5,682 nt of DNA from a virus. The notes under the pieces were generated by a model. The model was not told the DNA's origin, searched no databases, and saw only the letters and a program-made list of their open reading frames with translations. The stretch lies in the IMG/VR virus record IMGVR_UViG_3300045988_008026, positions 1 to 5,682 of that record. One strand, given 5' to 3'. The position numbers and the translations under genes are program-made. Positions 372-5,682 of the stretch are shown here, piece by piece. Position 1 is the stretch's first letter, and each line of letters opens with the position of its first letter.

Positions 372-635
372 ATGGAATTTCAGGTCTACGCAATCAAGGA
401 CGAACTTGCCGGAACTTTCGGGAATTTGATGGTGGTCAACGAAAAGGTAACCGAACGAACCTTCAGATGGATAGCACAGGAGATGGAAAAGGCAGACTGC
501 GAGGATAAGCGAGTTTACCTCCTGGGAAGCTACGACAACGAAACCGGACTGATCAGACCGGAGCAGCTGCCGCGTCTGATCTACAATCTCGAGCTGATGA
601 AAAAGGAGCAAACGAATGGGAGCCAGAATCTTTAA
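372..635 (+). CDS. VP5: Gokushovirus VP5-like nonstructural protein (functional analogue of phiX174 gpC), 87 aa
   Basis: SD AAGGAG (359..364) precedes ATG 372. The N-terminal pattern MEFQVYAIKDELAGTF...VVNEKVTERTFRW...YLLGSYDNETGLI matches the remembered VP5 signature (x-V-Y-x-x-x-D-x-x-A..F..., A.R.F, L.LG.FD...G). Its position just upstream of VP3 is typical. Confidence 0.75.
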   Translation: MEFQVYAIKDELAGTFGNLMVVNEKVTERTFRWIAQEMEKADCEDKRVYLLGSYDNETGLIRPEQLPRLIYNLELMKKEQTNGSQNL

Positions 636-1113
636 GCCCTACGAAGACGAAAAACCGCCTGCACTGCCGAACGAACCGGGAAACCAGTATGAACCGGAGT
701 ACAAAGAGCGCTATGATGACCGCGGTCAGCCATACCTTGAGAAGGTCGGCGAGGTAGACACCTACGAAAAAATCCAGAGCTACAAGGACGAATGCGACGT
801 CATGGCAATCCTGAGCCGGTACGCTGCGGGAGACGAGAGCGTACTAGCAAAACCGGGCTGGTACATCGACACCAGCAAGCTGCCGAAAACCTACACGGAG
901 TACATGAACCTGATGAACGAGAAGCGAGAAGAATTTAACCAGCTGCCGCTCTCCATCCGTCAGGCGTTCGGGATGAACTTCGAAAGCTGGATGGCAACGG
1001 CGGGTGAAAAAGAGTGGCTGGACAAAATGGGCATCAAAATTCAACAAAATGCACAAGAAAAGGAAGCTGCAGCAACCGAAACCATTGTGCAGGAAGGAGA
1101 AAATAAAGAATGA
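616..1113 (+). CDS. VP3: Internal scaffolding protein VP3, 165 aa
   Basis: SD AAGGAG (602..607) precedes ATG 616. The ORF overlaps the end of VP5 by 20 nt, and its stop overlaps the VP1 start as ATGA (1110..1113). It is acidic and carries the YEKIQSYKDECDVMAILSRYAAGD block typical of gokushovirus VP3. Gene order VP5-VP3-VP1 is conserved. Confidence 0.8.
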   Translation: MGARIFKPYEDEKPPALPNEPGNQYEPEYKERYDDRGQPYLEKVGEVDTYEKIQSYKDECDVMAILSRYAAGDESVLAKPGWYIDTSKLPKTYTEYMNLMNEKREEFNQLPLSIRQAFGMNFESWMATAGEKEWLDKMGIKIQQNAQEKEAAATETIVQEGENKE

Positions 1114-2741
1114 ACCGCAATGCTGAACAACACTATTCTCAGGTGCCTCATGCAAATGTTGCGCGCGCACGTTTCAAGCGGGACTATTCTCTGCTCACCA
1201 CAATAAACGAAGGCGATCTCGTCCCGATCTACTGTGACGAGATGTTGCCGGCCGATACGGCGAAGATCGACCTTAACGCTCTGATGCGTATGAGCACTCC
1301 GCTGTATCCTGTTATGGATAACTGTTATTGTGACTTTTACTTCTTCTTCGTACCATCGCGGCTGCTCTGGGAGCACTTCGAAAACCTGATGGGGCAAAAC
1401 GACTCTACTTTCTGGGCAGAGCCCACGGAGTACACGACTCCGAAAACGACTGCACCGTCTGGCGGCTGGAACGTGGGAACACTGGCAGACTACTTCGGCA
1501 TTCCGACCGGCGTAGCAAACCTTCATGTCAACTCGCTGCCGTTCCGAGCATATGCCAAAATCTGGAACGAATGGTTCCGGGACGAAAATTTGCAGCAGCC
1601 TGTCACGATGAGCAAGACGGATGCAACGACCGAAGGAAGCAACACCGGCACGAACCTCACAGACGCGGAAGCGGGCGGTCTGCCGCTGAAAGTCTGTAAA
1701 TACAAGGACTACTTCACCAGCTGCCTACCGAGTCCGCAGAAAGGACAGGCGGTCACGCTGCCGATGAACGCAAATGCAAAGCTCAGAGTATTCAAAGATC
1801 AGGAACTTACGCAAGTAATCGACGGAACCGGAGCAAAATGGAAAGACATATGGACATGGAACAACGAACCGGAAGGAATAACCAACAAGAAAAACGGAAC
1901 GCAAATCACTTTAACACAAGTAGGTTCTGGATTAGGAACAGAAACGGATGGATGGATAGGAACAGACCTAAGCGACGTAGCAGCCACGACAATCAATGAA
2001 CTCCGTCAAGCGATCGCAGTGCAACACATCCTGGAACGCGATGCCAGAACCGGCACCAGGTACAAAGAATACCTTCAGGGAGCATGGGGGGTAACGAGTC
2101 CCGATGCACGTCTTGACCGGTCGGAGTACATCGGCGGCTACAGACTGCCTATCAACATCAATCAGGTCATCCAGACGTCGGCGACCGACACGACGAGTCC
2201 GCAGGGCAACACAGCAGCGTTCTCCATGACCACGATGAGCCAGAACATGGCTACCTACTCGGCAACAGAACATGGCTTTATCCTCGGTCTGGCAGCTGTG
2301 CGAGTTGACCACAGCTATCAGCAGGGACTGTCTCGTATGTGGACGCGCAGCACACGCTTTTCCTATTATGATCCGATGCTCGCAAACCTGGGCGAGCAAG
2401 CTGTGCTCAACCAGGAAATCTATGCACAGGGTAAGGCAGTGGACGAAGAGGTCTTTGGCTATCAGGAAGCCTGGGCCGATTACAGATACCGCACCAACAT
2501 GATCACCGGCGAAATGCGCAGCAACTACGCACAAACCTTGGACGCGTGGCACTATGCAGACAAATACACGGAGCTGCCGAAGCTCTCCAGCGACTGGATT
2601 AAAGAGGGCAGGCAGAACATCGACCGCACGATCGCGGTAGAAAGCCAAAACAGCCGTCAATTTATCTGCAACTTCTACTTCGACCAGACCTGGACGCGAG
2701 CCATGCCGATCTACAGCCTGCCGGGCCTCGATACGATCTAA
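1110..2741 (+). CDS. VP1: Major capsid protein VP1 (Microviridae F-type capsid), 543 aa
   Basis: SD GGAAGGAGA (1092..1100) precedes the start. Hallmark blocks are present: DLVPIYCDEMLPADT, TPLYPVMDN...DFYFFFVPSRLLW, LPFRAYAKIWNEWFRDENLQ, INELRQAIAVQHILERDARTGTRYKEYLQGAWGV.SPDARLDRSEYIGG. Confidence 0.97.
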   Translation: MNRNAEQHYSQVPHANVARARFKRDYSLLTTINEGDLVPIYCDEMLPADTAKIDLNALMRMSTPLYPVMDNCYCDFYFFFVPSRLLWEHFENLMGQNDSTFWAEPTEYTTPKTTAPSGGWNVGTLADYFGIPTGVANLHVNSLPFRAYAKIWNEWFRDENLQQPVTMSKTDATTEGSNTGTNLTDAEAGGLPLKVCKYKDYFTSCLPSPQKGQAVTLPMNANAKLRVFKDQELTQVIDGTGAKWKDIWTWNNEPEGITNKKNGTQITLTQVGSGLGTETDGWIGTDLSDVAATTINELRQAIAVQHILERDARTGTRYKEYLQGAWGVTSPDARLDRSEYIGGYRLPININQVIQTSATDTTSPQGNTAAFSMTTMSQNMATYSATEHGFILGLAAVRVDHSYQQGLSRMWTRSTRFSYYDPMLANLGEQAVLNQEIYAQGKAVDEEVFGYQEAWADYRYRTNMITGEMRSNYAQTLDAWHYADKYTELPKLSSDWIKEGRQNIDRTIAVESQNSRQFICNFYFDQTWTRAMPIYSLPGLDTI

Positions 2742-2753
2742 GGGGGTGCAGCA

Positions 2754-3683
2754 ATGTCACTCACCTTAATGGGTCTGATCAAAGGCGGTCTGACACTGGC
2801 AAGCACGTTATCCAGCATCTACAGCAGCATCAAAGGCAGCACTTCGAGCGCACGACAGCAAGGCACTATGCAAAACAGCGTCCAGAGCGGCACGACAACG
2901 GGGACGACCGCACAGGATACTACAAGCACAGGCGGCAGCACTCAGACCGGCAACACCGGAGCACTGGGAAATCTGTTGTCAACAGCAATCGGCACACCGA
3001 CCGGGAACAACGCCGGAGCAGCCGCAGACTTTAACGCCGGACAAGTGCAGACAGCCAACAATCTGCAAAACGGTATGTGGAGCCTGGGCAACGTCATCAA
3101 CCTGGGCAGTATGCTGGCATCCAACGCGATGAGTGCAGCAAGCCAAAGCAGCGCAATGAGGTACAACTCGAAAGAGGCAAAAGCTCAAAGAGACTGGCAA
3201 GAGCGTATGAGCAGCACCAGCTATCAGAGAGGGGTAAAAGACCTCAAAGCAGCAGGGCTCAATCCGGTACTGGCAGCATACAACGGCTTCGGAGCACAGA
3301 CGCCGTCGGGCGGTTACGGCAGTCTGGGCGGGGGTCAGACCTTCGGTCATACTCAGGCAATGGCAATACCGACAGCAAAAAATGCGACCATGCAAGCCAT
3401 GTACGATTATGGCAACAACACAGCCCAAATCGTGGAAAACTATCAAAACGCCATCAACAGCGCAAAGCAATCATCGGACTACTGGACAGCCGAACACCTT
3501 GAGCAGATGCAGCAGCAGACCGTAAGCAGCAGCGCTCAGACAGTGGGTCAGCTGGCCGAAGCGGGTAGGAGCAGCAACGCTCAGACCTCGAGCACCAGAG
3601 AGACCAGCGACAGCAAACAGACCAACGTAGCCGGTGAACTGTCCGGTGAATGGACAAACAAAAAAGACAATCGCAGAAGATAG
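2754..3683 (+). CDS. VP2: Minor capsid / DNA pilot protein VP2, 309 aa
   Basis: SD AGGGGG (2741..2746) precedes ATG 2754. The N-terminus is hydrophobic (MSLTLMGLIKGGLTLASTL), followed by a long S/T/G/Q/A-rich low-complexity region. The conserved pilot-protein block ERMSSTSYQRGVKDLKAAGLNPVLAAY is present. The gene lies immediately after VP1. Confidence 0.85.
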   Translation: MSLTLMGLIKGGLTLASTLSSIYSSIKGSTSSARQQGTMQNSVQSGTTTGTTAQDTTSTGGSTQTGNTGALGNLLSTAIGTPTGNNAGAAADFNAGQVQTANNLQNGMWSLGNVINLGSMLASNAMSAASQSSAMRYNSKEAKAQRDWQERMSSTSYQRGVKDLKAAGLNPVLAAYNGFGAQTPSGGYGSLGGGQTFGHTQAMAIPTAKNATMQAMYDYGNNTAQIVENYQNAINSAKQSSDYWTAEHLEQMQQQTVSSSAQTVGQLAEAGRSSNAQTSSTRETSDSKQTNVAGELSGEWTNKKDNRRR

Positions 3684-3712
3684 TTGACAAAAACAGAAAA
3701 GAGGTGTATATT
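3684..3712 (+). promoter_or_regulatory. Sigma70-type promoter: TTGACA (3684..3689), 17-nt spacer, TATATT (3707..3712)
   Basis: The -35 matches 6/6. The -10 matches 5/6, keeping A2 and T6. Spacing is the optimal 17 nt. It starts 1 nt after the VP2 stop and about 40 nt upstream of the RHH ORF. Confidence 0.55.
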
Positions 3713-3753: not shown

Positions 3754-3966
3754 ATGAGAACACAGATCACAAAACGATTCAACGTCAATCTGACTAAGGC
3801 CGAAGAAGACGCACTCAAAAACCTGACAGAAGAGTATGCAAACCGAAACTGGAAAGCAAACACATCTGACATCATCCGGGACGCGATAGTATACTACAGC
3901 GAAAAGATGACGGACTATAAAATAGAACCAGAAATAATCAGCGAAGAGGAAGACTTGCCCTTCTAA
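3754..3966 (+). CDS. Ribbon-helix-helix (CopG/Arc/MetJ-like) DNA-binding protein, 70 aa, with an acidic C-terminal tail
   Basis: A perfect SD, AGGAGG (3742..3747), lies 6 nt before ATG 3754. The sequence fits the RHH layout: beta strand KRFNVNLT, helix A KAEEDALKNLTEEY, loop, helix B SDIIRDAIVYYSEK, then the tail EPEIISEEEDLPF. Fold is assigned by pattern only. Confidence 0.7.
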   Translation: MRTQITKRFNVNLTKAEEDALKNLTEEYANRNWKANTSDIIRDAIVYYSEKMTDYKIEPEIISEEEDLPF

Positions 3967-3972
3967 GAAACG

Positions 3973-3998
3973 ATTTTGCCGGGGAGACCCGGCCAAAT
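3973..3998 (+). other. GC-rich hairpin with a GAGA tetraloop, 12 nt after the RHH stop codon
   Basis: GCCGGG (3978..3983) pairs with CCCGGC (3988..3993) around loop GAGA. Flanking ATTTT/AAAT can extend the stem if one C is bulged. No U-run follows directly, so it is not a classical terminator. Confidence 0.4.
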
Positions 3999-4046
3999 CT
4001 GCAACATTTATCCATAGGTTTTTTTGAGAAAGAACTAAATTTTGTG

Positions 4047-4091
4047 TCAATGGGCCCCTATAACATCAAGAGGGTTATAGGGGCCCATTGA
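4047..4091. repeat. Perfect 18-bp inverted repeat with a 9-nt loop (ATCAAGAGG), in the RHH-Rep intergenic region
   Basis: TCAATGGGCCCCTATAAC (4047..4064) is the exact reverse complement of GTTATAGGGGCCCATTGA (4074..4091), verified base by base. It ends 21 nt before the Rep ATG. Confidence 0.95.
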
Positions 4092-4112
4092 GGAAAGGCG
4101 CAGCGAAACTAT

Positions 4113-5264
4113 ATGTCATGCACGAGACCGCTCGTCAGAATACCGACAAGCGACGGAGATTTCCGCGTAGTAAGCCTGAAAGGATACTTAAACCACAGCG
4201 GAAAGAACCTGGAATTTATCGCGGATAAAGAGCGTCAAGATCTAAACGAGAAAAAAATCAAAGAGCTGCTGAAAGCTCAAGAAGCGCAGCTGCTACCGTG
4301 CGGACAATGTCCGGGATGCAAAATGGCAGCAGCATCCAGCTGGGCAAACCGTATGGAGCTAGAGCTGCCATACCATCAAAACGCATGGTTCATCACGTTT
4401 ACATACGATGACGATAATGTGCCATACCGGATGACATGGGACGAAGGGACCGGCGAAGTACTAGTAGAAAATTACAGCCTACGGTATGAGGATATGCAAA
4501 AGTTCTGGAAACGCCTGAGAAGGTACATGGATTATCACAAGTTGTCAAGGTATGAAACCATCATCGACGAAGACGGAAACGAAACAAGGGTATGCACAAC
4601 AAAATACTTCCAATGTGGTGAATACGGCGGAAAAACACACAGACCACATTATCATGCAATAGTTTACGATATACCGTTCAAAAAAGACGAGTTGAAGATC
4701 TACAAAAAGAAAAACGGCGCTGTATACTACAACGTCGATTGGTTTACCGAACTATGGGGTATGGGCCATGTGGTCATCGCGGCAGCGGAGTGGAAAGCGA
4801 TGGCATACACAGCAAGATACACTACGAAAAAGGTCTACGGAAAGGAAGGAAAAGAATTTTACAAAGAACTGGGAATTTTGCCTGAAAAGTGCAACATGAG
4901 CAAAAGACCAGCAATCGGAGCAAAATATTTTAAAGAACATAGCGCAGAAATCTACAAAAAAGACAAAATACAGCTGAAGAACGGAAAAGTCTGCAAACCT
5001 CCAAGATACTTTGATAAACTATACGATGCACAGTGTCTAAGAAAACCACTCACAGAAAAAGAAGTGGAAGACATTGAGCTAGTAATAGAAAAAGCCGAGT
5101 CCGATGAACTCAAAGCGATAAAAAGAAAACGTCGTAAATTGGCAAACGACGCACTCTTCGCCAAGCTCAAACAGAACAACGGCTTAACCATGCAAGAGTA
5201 TTATAGCAAGGAAGAGCAGAAAATGCAAGACAGGTTTAGGAAGCTGATCCGGGAAGAAATCTAA
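4113..5264 (+). CDS. VP4: Replication initiation protein VP4 (HUH rolling-circle endonuclease), 383 aa
   Basis: Motifs present: Cys cluster LPCGQCPGCK, motif I FITFTYDD, HUH motif II RPHYHAIVY, and catalytic Tyr motif III AYTARYTTKKVY. No good SD lies within 5-10 nt of the ATG. The nearest, GAGGAAAGG (4090..4098), lies 14 nt upstream of the ATG. Confidence 0.95.
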   Translation: MSCTRPLVRIPTSDGDFRVVSLKGYLNHSGKNLEFIADKERQDLNEKKIKELLKAQEAQLLPCGQCPGCKMAAASSWANRMELELPYHQNAWFITFTYDDDNVPYRMTWDEGTGEVLVENYSLRYEDMQKFWKRLRRYMDYHKLSRYETIIDEDGNETRVCTTKYFQCGEYGGKTHRPHYHAIVYDIPFKKDELKIYKKKNGAVYYNVDWFTELWGMGHVVIAAAEWKAMAYTARYTTKKVYGKEGKEFYKELGILPEKCNMSKRPAIGAKYFKEHSAEIYKKDKIQLKNGKVCKPPRYFDKLYDAQCLRKPLTEKEVEDIELVIEKAESDELKAIKRKRRKLANDALFAKLKQNNGLTMQEYYSKEEQKMQDRFRKLIREEI

Positions 5265-5287: not shown

Positions 5288-5326
5288 AGACGGCGTGGCT
5301 ACGAGAAGCTACGCCGTCTTCTTCGT
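5288..5326 (+). other. Stem-loop about 25 nt after the Rep stop, followed by a pyrimidine-rich tail. Possibly a weak terminator or attenuator.
   Basis: AGACGGCGT (5288..5296) pairs with ACGCCGTCT (5311..5319). The stem extends by GGCT/AGCT (one G-U pair) around loop ACGAGA, followed by TCTTCGT. Confidence 0.35.
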
Positions 5327-5328
5327 AC

Positions 5329-5347
5329 GGCCCGGGGCGGCCGGGCC
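5329..5347 (+). other. Short all-GC hairpin
   Basis: GGCCCGG (5329..5335) pairs with CCGGGCC (5341..5347) around loop GGCGG. Confidence 0.4.
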
Positions 5348-5530: not shown

Positions 5531-5578
5531 AAAAAACGTGAGGTTGACGAAAAGCAGCCTTGCGTTTTTTTTTTTTTT
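5531..5578 (+). terminator. Rho-independent terminator: A6, a 10-bp stem, and T14
   Basis: CGTGAGGTTG (5537..5546) pairs with CAGCCTTGCG (5555..5564), including 3 G-U pairs, around an 8-nt loop. Fourteen consecutive T follow (5565..5578, equal to 2..15). The upstream A6 (5531..5536) can pair with the T tract. Confidence 0.75.
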
Positions 5579-5682
5579 GGTAAAATTGACATGGAGAGCC
5601 GGCGCCAGAAAACGAAAGGAGAAAGCACTGCCTCCGGCGCCGGTGATCTGTGCTTCAACCATTTATACAAATATGGAAAGAA
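5564..5682. repeat. Terminal direct repeat, copy 2 (identical to 1..119)
   Basis: See copy 1. All 119 nt are identical. Confidence 0.92.

Follow-up and report, generated by a model that had tools for sequence, protein, structure and literature searches.

The viral-strand origin of phiX174 is a 30-nt sequence on the coding strand inside gene A, where it is cut by gpA. Origins of this type are laid out as a recognition sequence, a spacer and a 3' 'key' binding sequence ~18-27 nt after the start, and the phiX174 origin needs no hairpin. The double-strand origins of the pC194/pUB110 plasmid family are nicked at CTTG/ATA. Complementary-strand origins and host priming factors differ even between the close coliphages phiX174 and G4. 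Virion DNA of the Microviridae is of mRNA sense, and within this family the Gokushovirinae make up the most abundant group of microviruses in viromes from the gut and the environment. Cap-Rep hairpins in which the loop is conserved and changes in the stem compensate each other were described in reekeekee- and roodoodoo-microviruses (Olo Ndela et al. 2022, PMC9865509), whose authors discussed minus-strand priming, presented no Rep nick site and left the role of the hairpins open. In the full-text literature that we searched, we found no description of a gokushovirus origin or origin hairpin, although the older literature on SpV4, Chp2 and phiMH2K may mention one. Here we describe a hairpin next to the rep gene of a gokushovirus that probably marks such an origin.

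A perfect hairpin upstream of rep

The window, by which we mean the whole 5682-nt stretch of DNA analysed here, is a complete gokushovirus (Microviridae) genome. It carries an exact 119-bp terminal direct repeat (positions 1-119 and 5564-5682), which is the overlap of a circular assembly, so that the true unique circle is 5563 bp. Every recognisable gene is carried on the plus strand (Table 1), and the nearest GenBank records are the human gut gokushovirus KX513873 and three Microviridae from pig faeces, at ~87% identity. The Rep protein (VP4) has the HUH motif HRPHYHAIVY and the YxxxY motif AYTARYTTKK with two tyrosines like phiX gpA, and the Rep profile of the clade could be aligned to phiX gpA at the HUH region (hhalign, E=0.0034). 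Just before the HUH motif, the window Rep contains a 14-aa insertion (within ...SRYETIIDEDGNETRVCTTK..., residues ~150-164, window ~4560-4605) that is missing in five aligned relatives.

Table 1. Coordinates of the genes and of the hairpin-associated features in the window
Feature	Position	Strand	Remarks
VP5	372-635	+	
VP3 scaffold	616-1113	+	
VP1 capsid	1110-2741	+	
VP2 pilot	2754-3683	+	
Near-consensus sigma-70 promoter	3684-3712		TTGACA-17-TATATT, 11/12 match; drives 70-aa ORF
70-aa RHH-like ORF	3754-3966	+	
Hairpin II	4002-4044	-	Minus-strand ssDNA fold; long loop; arms CAA.ATTTA / TAAAT.TTG
Conserved flank TGACAC	4044-4049	-	GTGTCA on plus strand; overlaps stem foot
Hairpin I, arm TCAATGGGCCCCTATAAC	4047-4064	-	5' arm on plus strand; 3' arm on motif (minus) strand
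Hairpin I, loop	4065-4073	-	ATCAAGAGG on plus strand, CCTCTTGAT on minus strand; holds CTTG/AT
Predicted Rep cleavage site	4066-4067	-	Between G (opposite C4067) and A (opposite T4066)
Hairpin I, other arm GTTATAGGGGCCCATTGA	4074-4091	-	Last three bases TGA
Rep (VP4), presumed trans-acting nickase	4113-5264	+	PF23343 E=7e-11; phrog_942 E=2e-94

A reading of the sequence alone had pointed to a perfect 18-bp hairpin with a 9-nt loop immediately upstream of rep as a candidate origin or single-strand signal. An inverted-repeat search confirmed this hairpin (hairpin I) with 18/18 positions paired and 100% complementarity. Hairpin I is single-copy in the genome, and the runner-up inverted repeats in the window had arms of 14 nt at 86% and 13 nt at 92%. 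We estimated the number of such hairpins expected by chance, from ~5563 positions x 13 loop sizes x 4^-18, as roughly 1e-6 per genome, in agreement with the earlier view that the repeat is not random. The ssDNA fold of the region 3960-4130 had a z-score of -5.7, and 0/200 shuffles folded as well. Read on the minus strand, hairpin I is 5'-TCAATGGGCCCCTATAAC-CCTCTTG/AT-GTTATAGGGGCCCATTGA-CACAAAA..., followed by a second hairpin (hairpin II), and the minus-strand 45-mer spanning hairpin I is TCAATGGGCCCCTATAACCCTCTTGATGTTATAGGGGCCCATTGA.

The close placement to rep was likewise borne out, the hairpin ending 21 nt before the rep ATG. Since the in-frame stop TGA at 4089-4091 is the stem end, 4113 is the first possible start codon of rep. 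The SD-like sequence that had been noted here is a weak SD, GAGG, starting at the last stem base. As had also been stated, no T-run follows the hairpin on either strand (GAGGAAAGG on the plus strand and CACAAAATTT on the minus strand); the hairpin was also absent from a terminator scan, and an intrinsic terminator was thus ruled out. Promoter elements were searched for by eye: no sigma-70 hexamer pair with workable spacing was found in or across the stem, and a Bacteroides-type -7 motif in the 5' flank was rejected, as the A/T run was variable and TTGTGTCA alone was fixed. The TATAAC of the stem, considered as a promoter part, is not conserved in distant relatives.

The 70-aa ORF upstream of the hairpins was predicted to have a beta-alpha-alpha (ribbon-helix-helix-like, RHH-like) layout by a low-confidence single-sequence model (pLDDT 63), and a PDB sequence search with this ORF gave no match. 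Its homologues were found in most members of the window clade, were absent in some and were found in none of the other gokushoviruses; the predicted protein may be an accessory regulator. Directly 3' of this ORF is a GC-rich hairpin without a T-run (3975-3997, GCCGGG-GAGA-CCCGGC and flanking pairs), which is kept in relatives with other sequence, such as GACCGAG-TTCG-CTCGGTC in contig L059. This hairpin probably belongs to the upstream transcript, since it keeps gene orientation while the cassette described below flips.

Elsewhere in the window, a small and very basic ORF at 240-359 (MAHRMTVNPKKDKKVFTNTAKKTKKINVNPKPSRGGIRL) overlaps the stop of the 70-aa ORF that precedes it (TAATG) and looks like a candidate for the J/ORF8-type DNA-condensing protein of other Microviridae. 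Two GC-rich hairpins are located right after the rep stop (5288-5319 and 5329-5347), and the rep transcription unit ends at a strong intrinsic terminator (5531-5570) that has a run of 15 T. In the segment 5369-5527, a second promoter-like element (TCGACA-17-TATAAA, with GGTG before it) resembles the promoter of the RHH-like ORF. A Cys-rich 40-aa ORF (MDYRYEHCNGACEKCPCHDVSYYCSYIHDQVRKELNRRGE) lies 3' of this element in the same segment, and its coding status is doubtful because its ATG overlaps the -10 hexamer.

Covariation of the stem and constancy of the loop

The sequence-only reading had suggested looking for covariation or conservation of stem versus loop in related genomes, and had held that related phages lacking a structured element at this position would speak against a function. 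We gathered relatives of the window, and all of them carry the hairpin. The four GenBank relatives retain it with compensated changes from A-T to G-C at stem position 4 and from T-A to A-T at position 13. Further relatives were gathered from IMG/VR by one pattern scan and two Rep-based scans, and in all of the more than 60 additional genomes, the Rep proteins of which ranged from 97% to 45% identity, the hairpin was found 20-45 nt upstream of rep. In distant relatives, wholly different stems still pair (e.g. AGTGGGGGGAATAGAC/GTCTATTCCCCCCACT, CACTGGGGGGAAATGT/ACATTTCCCCCCAGTG and TCACCTAGCCCCWATAAC), and in one variant a 1-nt insertion is matched in both arms. As four GenBank genomes and more than 50 IMG/VR contigs carry the hairpin with compensated variants, an assembly artefact was ruled out.

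Among 31 distinct variants of the clade, 96.1% of cells were paired and 14/19 stem pairs had double-sided changes, values that were reached by 0/500 shuffles. When the partners were slid by 1-3 columns, pairing fell to 31-49%. In the same 31 variants, the loop bases T-C-A-A-G-A were invariant, the loop being a constant (A/G)TCAAGA in the clade, as was the plus-strand 5' flank T-x-T-G-T-C-A. The stem covaries and presents a constant, asymmetric loop.

A phiX174-like nick core in a two-hairpin module

The reverse complement of the loop, CCTCTTGAT, includes the sequence CTTG/AT, which is also the nick core in the phiX174 origin CAACTTG/ATATTAATAACACTATAGACCAC (annotated at 4306 in J02482, core CAACTTG/ATA). 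The window's own loop shares just CTTGAT (6-7 nt) with the phiX174 origin, and the consensus of 68 gokushovirus genomes, TACTTG/ATGTAACT, matches phiX174 AACTTG/ATATTAAT at 10/14 positions. The cleavage site in Table 1 was predicted by the register with the phiX174 cut between G4305 and A4306 together with this 68-genome consensus. The earlier picture of a nick in the hairpin loop changes as to the strand: the nick-like motif is on the strand complementary to the genes, and the plus-strand ATCAAGAGG that had been read would not be the one to be cut. The plus strand of the window contains no CTTGAT and no other CTTGAT-type candidate nick site.

We oriented 80 diverse gokushovirus contigs by Rep and searched each for its strongest perfect hairpins, with no motif as a guide. 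The same element recurred in most of these 80 genomes, for example as AGCACAGTTAC-cTTACTTGAT-GTAACTGTGCT. The strongest hairpin of the Chlamydia phage Chp2, CTAGCGTATAACAG-TCTACTTGAT-CTGTTATACGCTAG, lies between VP3 and ORF8 on the coding strand, and SpV4 has a hairpin with an ACTTG loop (TGGGGCATAT-ATTACTTGTTATA-ATATGCCCCA). The coding-strand loop in Chp2, SpV4 and most other gokushoviruses is (c/t)TACTTGAT or CTCTTGAT. The recurring module consists of a hairpin with the TACTTGAT loop, the block TGACAC ~18 nt past the cut and a second hairpin. A regular expression composed of the loop motif, a stem and TGACA matched in 70/75 genomes versus 0.032 matches per shuffled genome, with one module per genome-length contig and two copies in a few longer contigs.

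The block TGACAC starts 18-19 nt past the predicted cut, and the spacer between them is the stem arm, not an AT-rich stretch; phiX174 has GACCAC at +18 to +23 after its cut. Read in the orientation of the loop, the 3' flank is conserved whichever strand carries the module, as aGGTGACACC or CTGACACC, and as TGACACAAAA in the window clade. The latter corresponds, as reverse complement, to the '5' flank' of the plus strand in the window clade, where the fixed block TTGTGTCA is the reverse complement of the TGACAC flank. The second hairpin starts 0-2 nt past hairpin I with TGACA in its 5' arm, an arrangement also found in L103, L082, L054 and L110, and the arms of hairpin II in the window include the block CAACATTTATCCAT, which is conserved in relatives. 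The bounds 4047-4091 given by the sequence-only reading therefore delimit a real element but are too short, since TGACAC and hairpin II also belong to it.

No convincing module was found in phiMH2K (L092, AF306496), and the regular expression recognised none in L106, L133, L148, L156 and 7 of L174-L246. In these genomes, either the motif has diverged beyond the regular expression or another origin is used. The module was found twice in L103, L113, L116, L134, L140 and L157, of which L103, L113 and L140 exceed one genome length and are concatemer-like, and L134 and L157 have the second copy near the contig end. One forward and one inverted module were found in L211 (7309 nt), which may be a chimera of two phages.

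Two orientations of the module

The genomes fell into two classes. The forward class, with the motif on the coding strand, comprises Chp2, SpV4 and ~120 diverse genomes. The inverted class, with the entire module on the opposite strand, comprises the whole window clade, L054 with its relatives and 17 diverse genomes; the window accordingly has its genes on the plus strand and the nick-like motif on the minus strand. The module position is alike in both classes, with a median of ~200 nt upstream of rep (45 nt in the window), and in most gokushoviruses the module, ~200 nt from rep, is upstream of another small gene. As the 3' TGACAC and the second hairpin are kept in both orientation classes, the whole module is directional.

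The inverted genome L246 and the forward genome L214 are collinear with ~78% identity genome-wide, and they differ in orientation only over the 32 nt of the module, which occupies one and the same intergenic site in both, indicating that the cassette flipped in place. Neighbor-joining trees required 5 orientation changes for Rep and 2 for VP1, the latter suggesting few independent inversion events. The cassette behaves as a self-contained unit that would have been inverted in place several times in gokushovirus evolution.

A probable viral-strand origin and the alternatives

These observations are best explained if hairpin I is part of a ~90-nt two-hairpin cis-acting replication cassette (window 4002-4091) that is present in most gokushoviruses, once per genome. 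Within this cassette, hairpin I is probably the viral-strand origin, at which Rep would nick the minus-strand loop opposite plus-strand positions 4067/4066. Among the roles that had been proposed for the hairpin, that of an origin is the one supported by its conservation across gokushoviruses, its covarying stem and its constant loop matching the phiX174 nick core. The same loop occurs in phages of Chlamydia, Spiroplasma and gut bacteria, which favours recognition by the viral Rep over recognition by diverse host priming factors.

By analogy with gpA, the following course of events would be expected. In the supercoiled replicative form, the inverted repeat would extrude or melt so that the loop becomes single-stranded. 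Rep, as a putative two-tyrosine gpA-type HUH endonuclease, would dock on the TGACAC/hairpin II side, cut the minus strand between the G and the A and stay on the 5' A, and the 3' OH would prime rolling-circle synthesis. One turn later, Rep would cut the regenerated loop and seal the displaced circle. The cut strand would thus be displaced and encapsidated, and replication in the window clade would proceed against the direction of transcription.

The main rival is a complementary-strand (minus) origin, in which the hairpins would form on the single strand after injection and recruit host primase, PriA or RNA polymerase for conversion into double-stranded DNA, as happens in G4, phiX174 or the sso elements of plasmids, and Rep would nick elsewhere. 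The presence of two stable ssDNA hairpins side by side between genes, and the covarying stem, would suit this role, and a strand-specific signal would also explain the directional module; indeed, a strand-specific complementary-strand origin would yield the same comparative pattern as a viral-strand origin. Such a role was also proposed for the Cap-Rep hairpins of two small microvirus clades, where it was left open (PMC9865509). We nevertheless consider it unlikely here, because one loop is found across very different hosts although priming systems differ, because the plus strand of the window offers Rep no other candidate site of the CTTGAT type and because the functional single strand in the window clade would still be the non-coding one. 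Moreover, the loop matches the nick core of the phiX174 Rep, and we know of no priming signal that matches it. Both roles could also reside in the one cassette: hairpin I would be nicked, and hairpin II would bind Rep or serve priming. Such a division would explain why inversion is tolerated as a unit.

An RNA element in the rep 5' UTR, where the stem would control rep translation or mRNA stability or serve as an RNase III site, was suggested by the location of the hairpin between the strong promoter at 3684-3712 and rep, with GAGG at the last stem base and the rep ATG close by. Control of translation by an mRNA structure had been raised before and is now disfavoured, since the module can face either way with respect to transcription while its internal order is kept; the RNA would therefore contain CUUGAU in one set of phages and AUCAAG in another. 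In most gokushoviruses, moreover, the module is ~200 nt from rep with another small gene between, and no known RNA family was matched in Rfam, the best score being 26 bits vs a threshold of 82 bits. An RNA element as the main function is thus very improbable, and a secondary effect of the stem on rep expression in the window clade is possible.

We attach equally little weight to an operator at which the upstream RHH-like protein, or another dimeric dsDNA binder, would repress rep. A perfect palindrome does separate the RHH-like gene from rep, and this layout resembles the CopG-RepB arrangement of pMV158. However, the RHH-like ORF has homologues only in the window clade, and not in all of its members, whereas the module is nearly universal and present in genomes without the RHH gene, which also tells against the dsDNA binding site for an RHH protein that had been proposed earlier. 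The stem bases vary while pairing is kept, including in the compensated insertion, which suits a structure and not base-specific half-sites, and the constant part is the asymmetric loop. The least probable alternative is that the hairpin serves in recombination or integration, as a dif/XerCD-like or loxP-like site, or is an invertible switch. The repeat-spacer-repeat layout, the in-place inversion between related phages and the integration of some gokushoviruses at dif would suggest such a role. Against it, the arms of 16-19 bp and the spacer of 9-11 nt depart from the 11-6-11 layout of dif and from the arms of ~11-13 bp and spacers of 6-8 bp of tyrosine-recombinase core sites, no recombinase is encoded in the genome, copies of the hairpin had 0 matches in 185,579 bacterial and archaeal species genomes, and the inversion takes in the TGACAC flank outside the arms and hence is no flip between the arms.

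Packaged strand and codon-site composition

If hairpin I is the viral-strand origin, the nicked strand would be the displaced and packaged strand, so that the window clade would package the strand antisense to its genes, and a minus-strand nick contradicts the mRNA-sense virion DNA of the Microviridae. ssDNA phages are reported to prefer NNT codons, which was attributed to a C-to-T bias on the single strand (PMC3278643, PMC4032129). At 4-fold sites, the AT skew of the coding strand was -0.64 in phiX174, -0.35 in Chp2 and +0.41 in the window, where T accounted for only 13%. The mean 4-fold AT skews in two samples were -0.24 and -0.19 for the forward class and +0.52 and +0.61 for the inverted class, and the coding strand was T-poor at 4-fold sites in 48/49 inverted-class genomes. 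The composition of the inverted class is the predicted mirror image of the NNT preference and fits antisense packaging, a fit that is confounded by ancestry.

Counter-cases were found in both classes. Of the forward-class genomes, 12/126 were A-rich at 4-fold sites, and L246 and L214 were both A-rich despite their opposite module orientation; we accordingly downgraded composition as proof of the packaged strand. The only inverted genome with a T-rich coding strand was L110 (IMGVR_UViG_3300020043_004275, module at ~4187-4216), which had a 4-fold AT skew of -0.62 and nearest Rep relatives of at most 58% identity. L110 may have flipped recently, or it may be a case against the composition argument. 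The coding strand of phiMH2K was A-rich (+0.31).

On balance, we suggest only tentatively that the window clade packages the strand antisense to its genes, with doubts slightly outweighing the arguments from motif strand and composition. With similar reserve, gokushoviruses might be viewed as sharing an invertible cassette. In the window clade and in several further lineages, it would direct nicking, rolling-circle synthesis and encapsidation of the antisense strand, which would make these phages the first 'negative-sense' Microviridae. If this is true, replication in the window clade runs head-on into transcription.

Comparison with known origins

Our analysis yields a concrete single-copy origin candidate with a predicted cut site. 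If correct, it links the gokushovirus and phiX174 origins, places a phiX-type nick core in a hairpin as in other HUH replicons and provides a sequence marker for the encapsidated strand. Orientation flips would then imply that the polarity of the virion strand can vary within the Microviridae, which bears on strand-specific virome methods, on studies of mutation bias and codon usage, and on gokushovirus-based replicons.

Like the complementary-strand origins of G4 and phiX174, the module comprises intergenic, strand-specific ssDNA hairpins, but those origins are recognised by host proteins, whereas one loop motif here spans very different hosts. The hairpins of the reekeekee- and roodoodoo-microviruses, compared here by their published description, are also intergenic and near rep, and belong to other Microviridae clades. 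With the origins of circoviruses and geminiviruses and the hairpin I origins of pMV158, the window shares a conserved ~9-nt loop on a GC-rich covarying stem near rep and a predicted nick in the loop. It differs from these origins in that its loop is unrelated to TAGTATTAC/TAATATTAC and its Rep is of another HUH family. Neither the CRESS-type nonanucleotide NANTATTAC nor iterons were found at the hairpin, which is flanked by a single TGACAC block without iterated repeats. The double-strand origins of the pC194/pUB110 plasmids have the same CTTG/AT core as phiX174 and the window loop.

With the viral-strand origin of phiX174, likewise a member of the Microviridae, the gokushovirus module shares the nick core ACTTG/AT, a Rep with HUH and YxxxY motifs and a GAC-containing block 18-19 nt after the cut. 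In contrast to phiX174, the core here is located in an intergenic region, where a covarying stem of 16-19 bp carries it in the loop and a second hairpin follows, and in the window clade it is on the non-coding strand.
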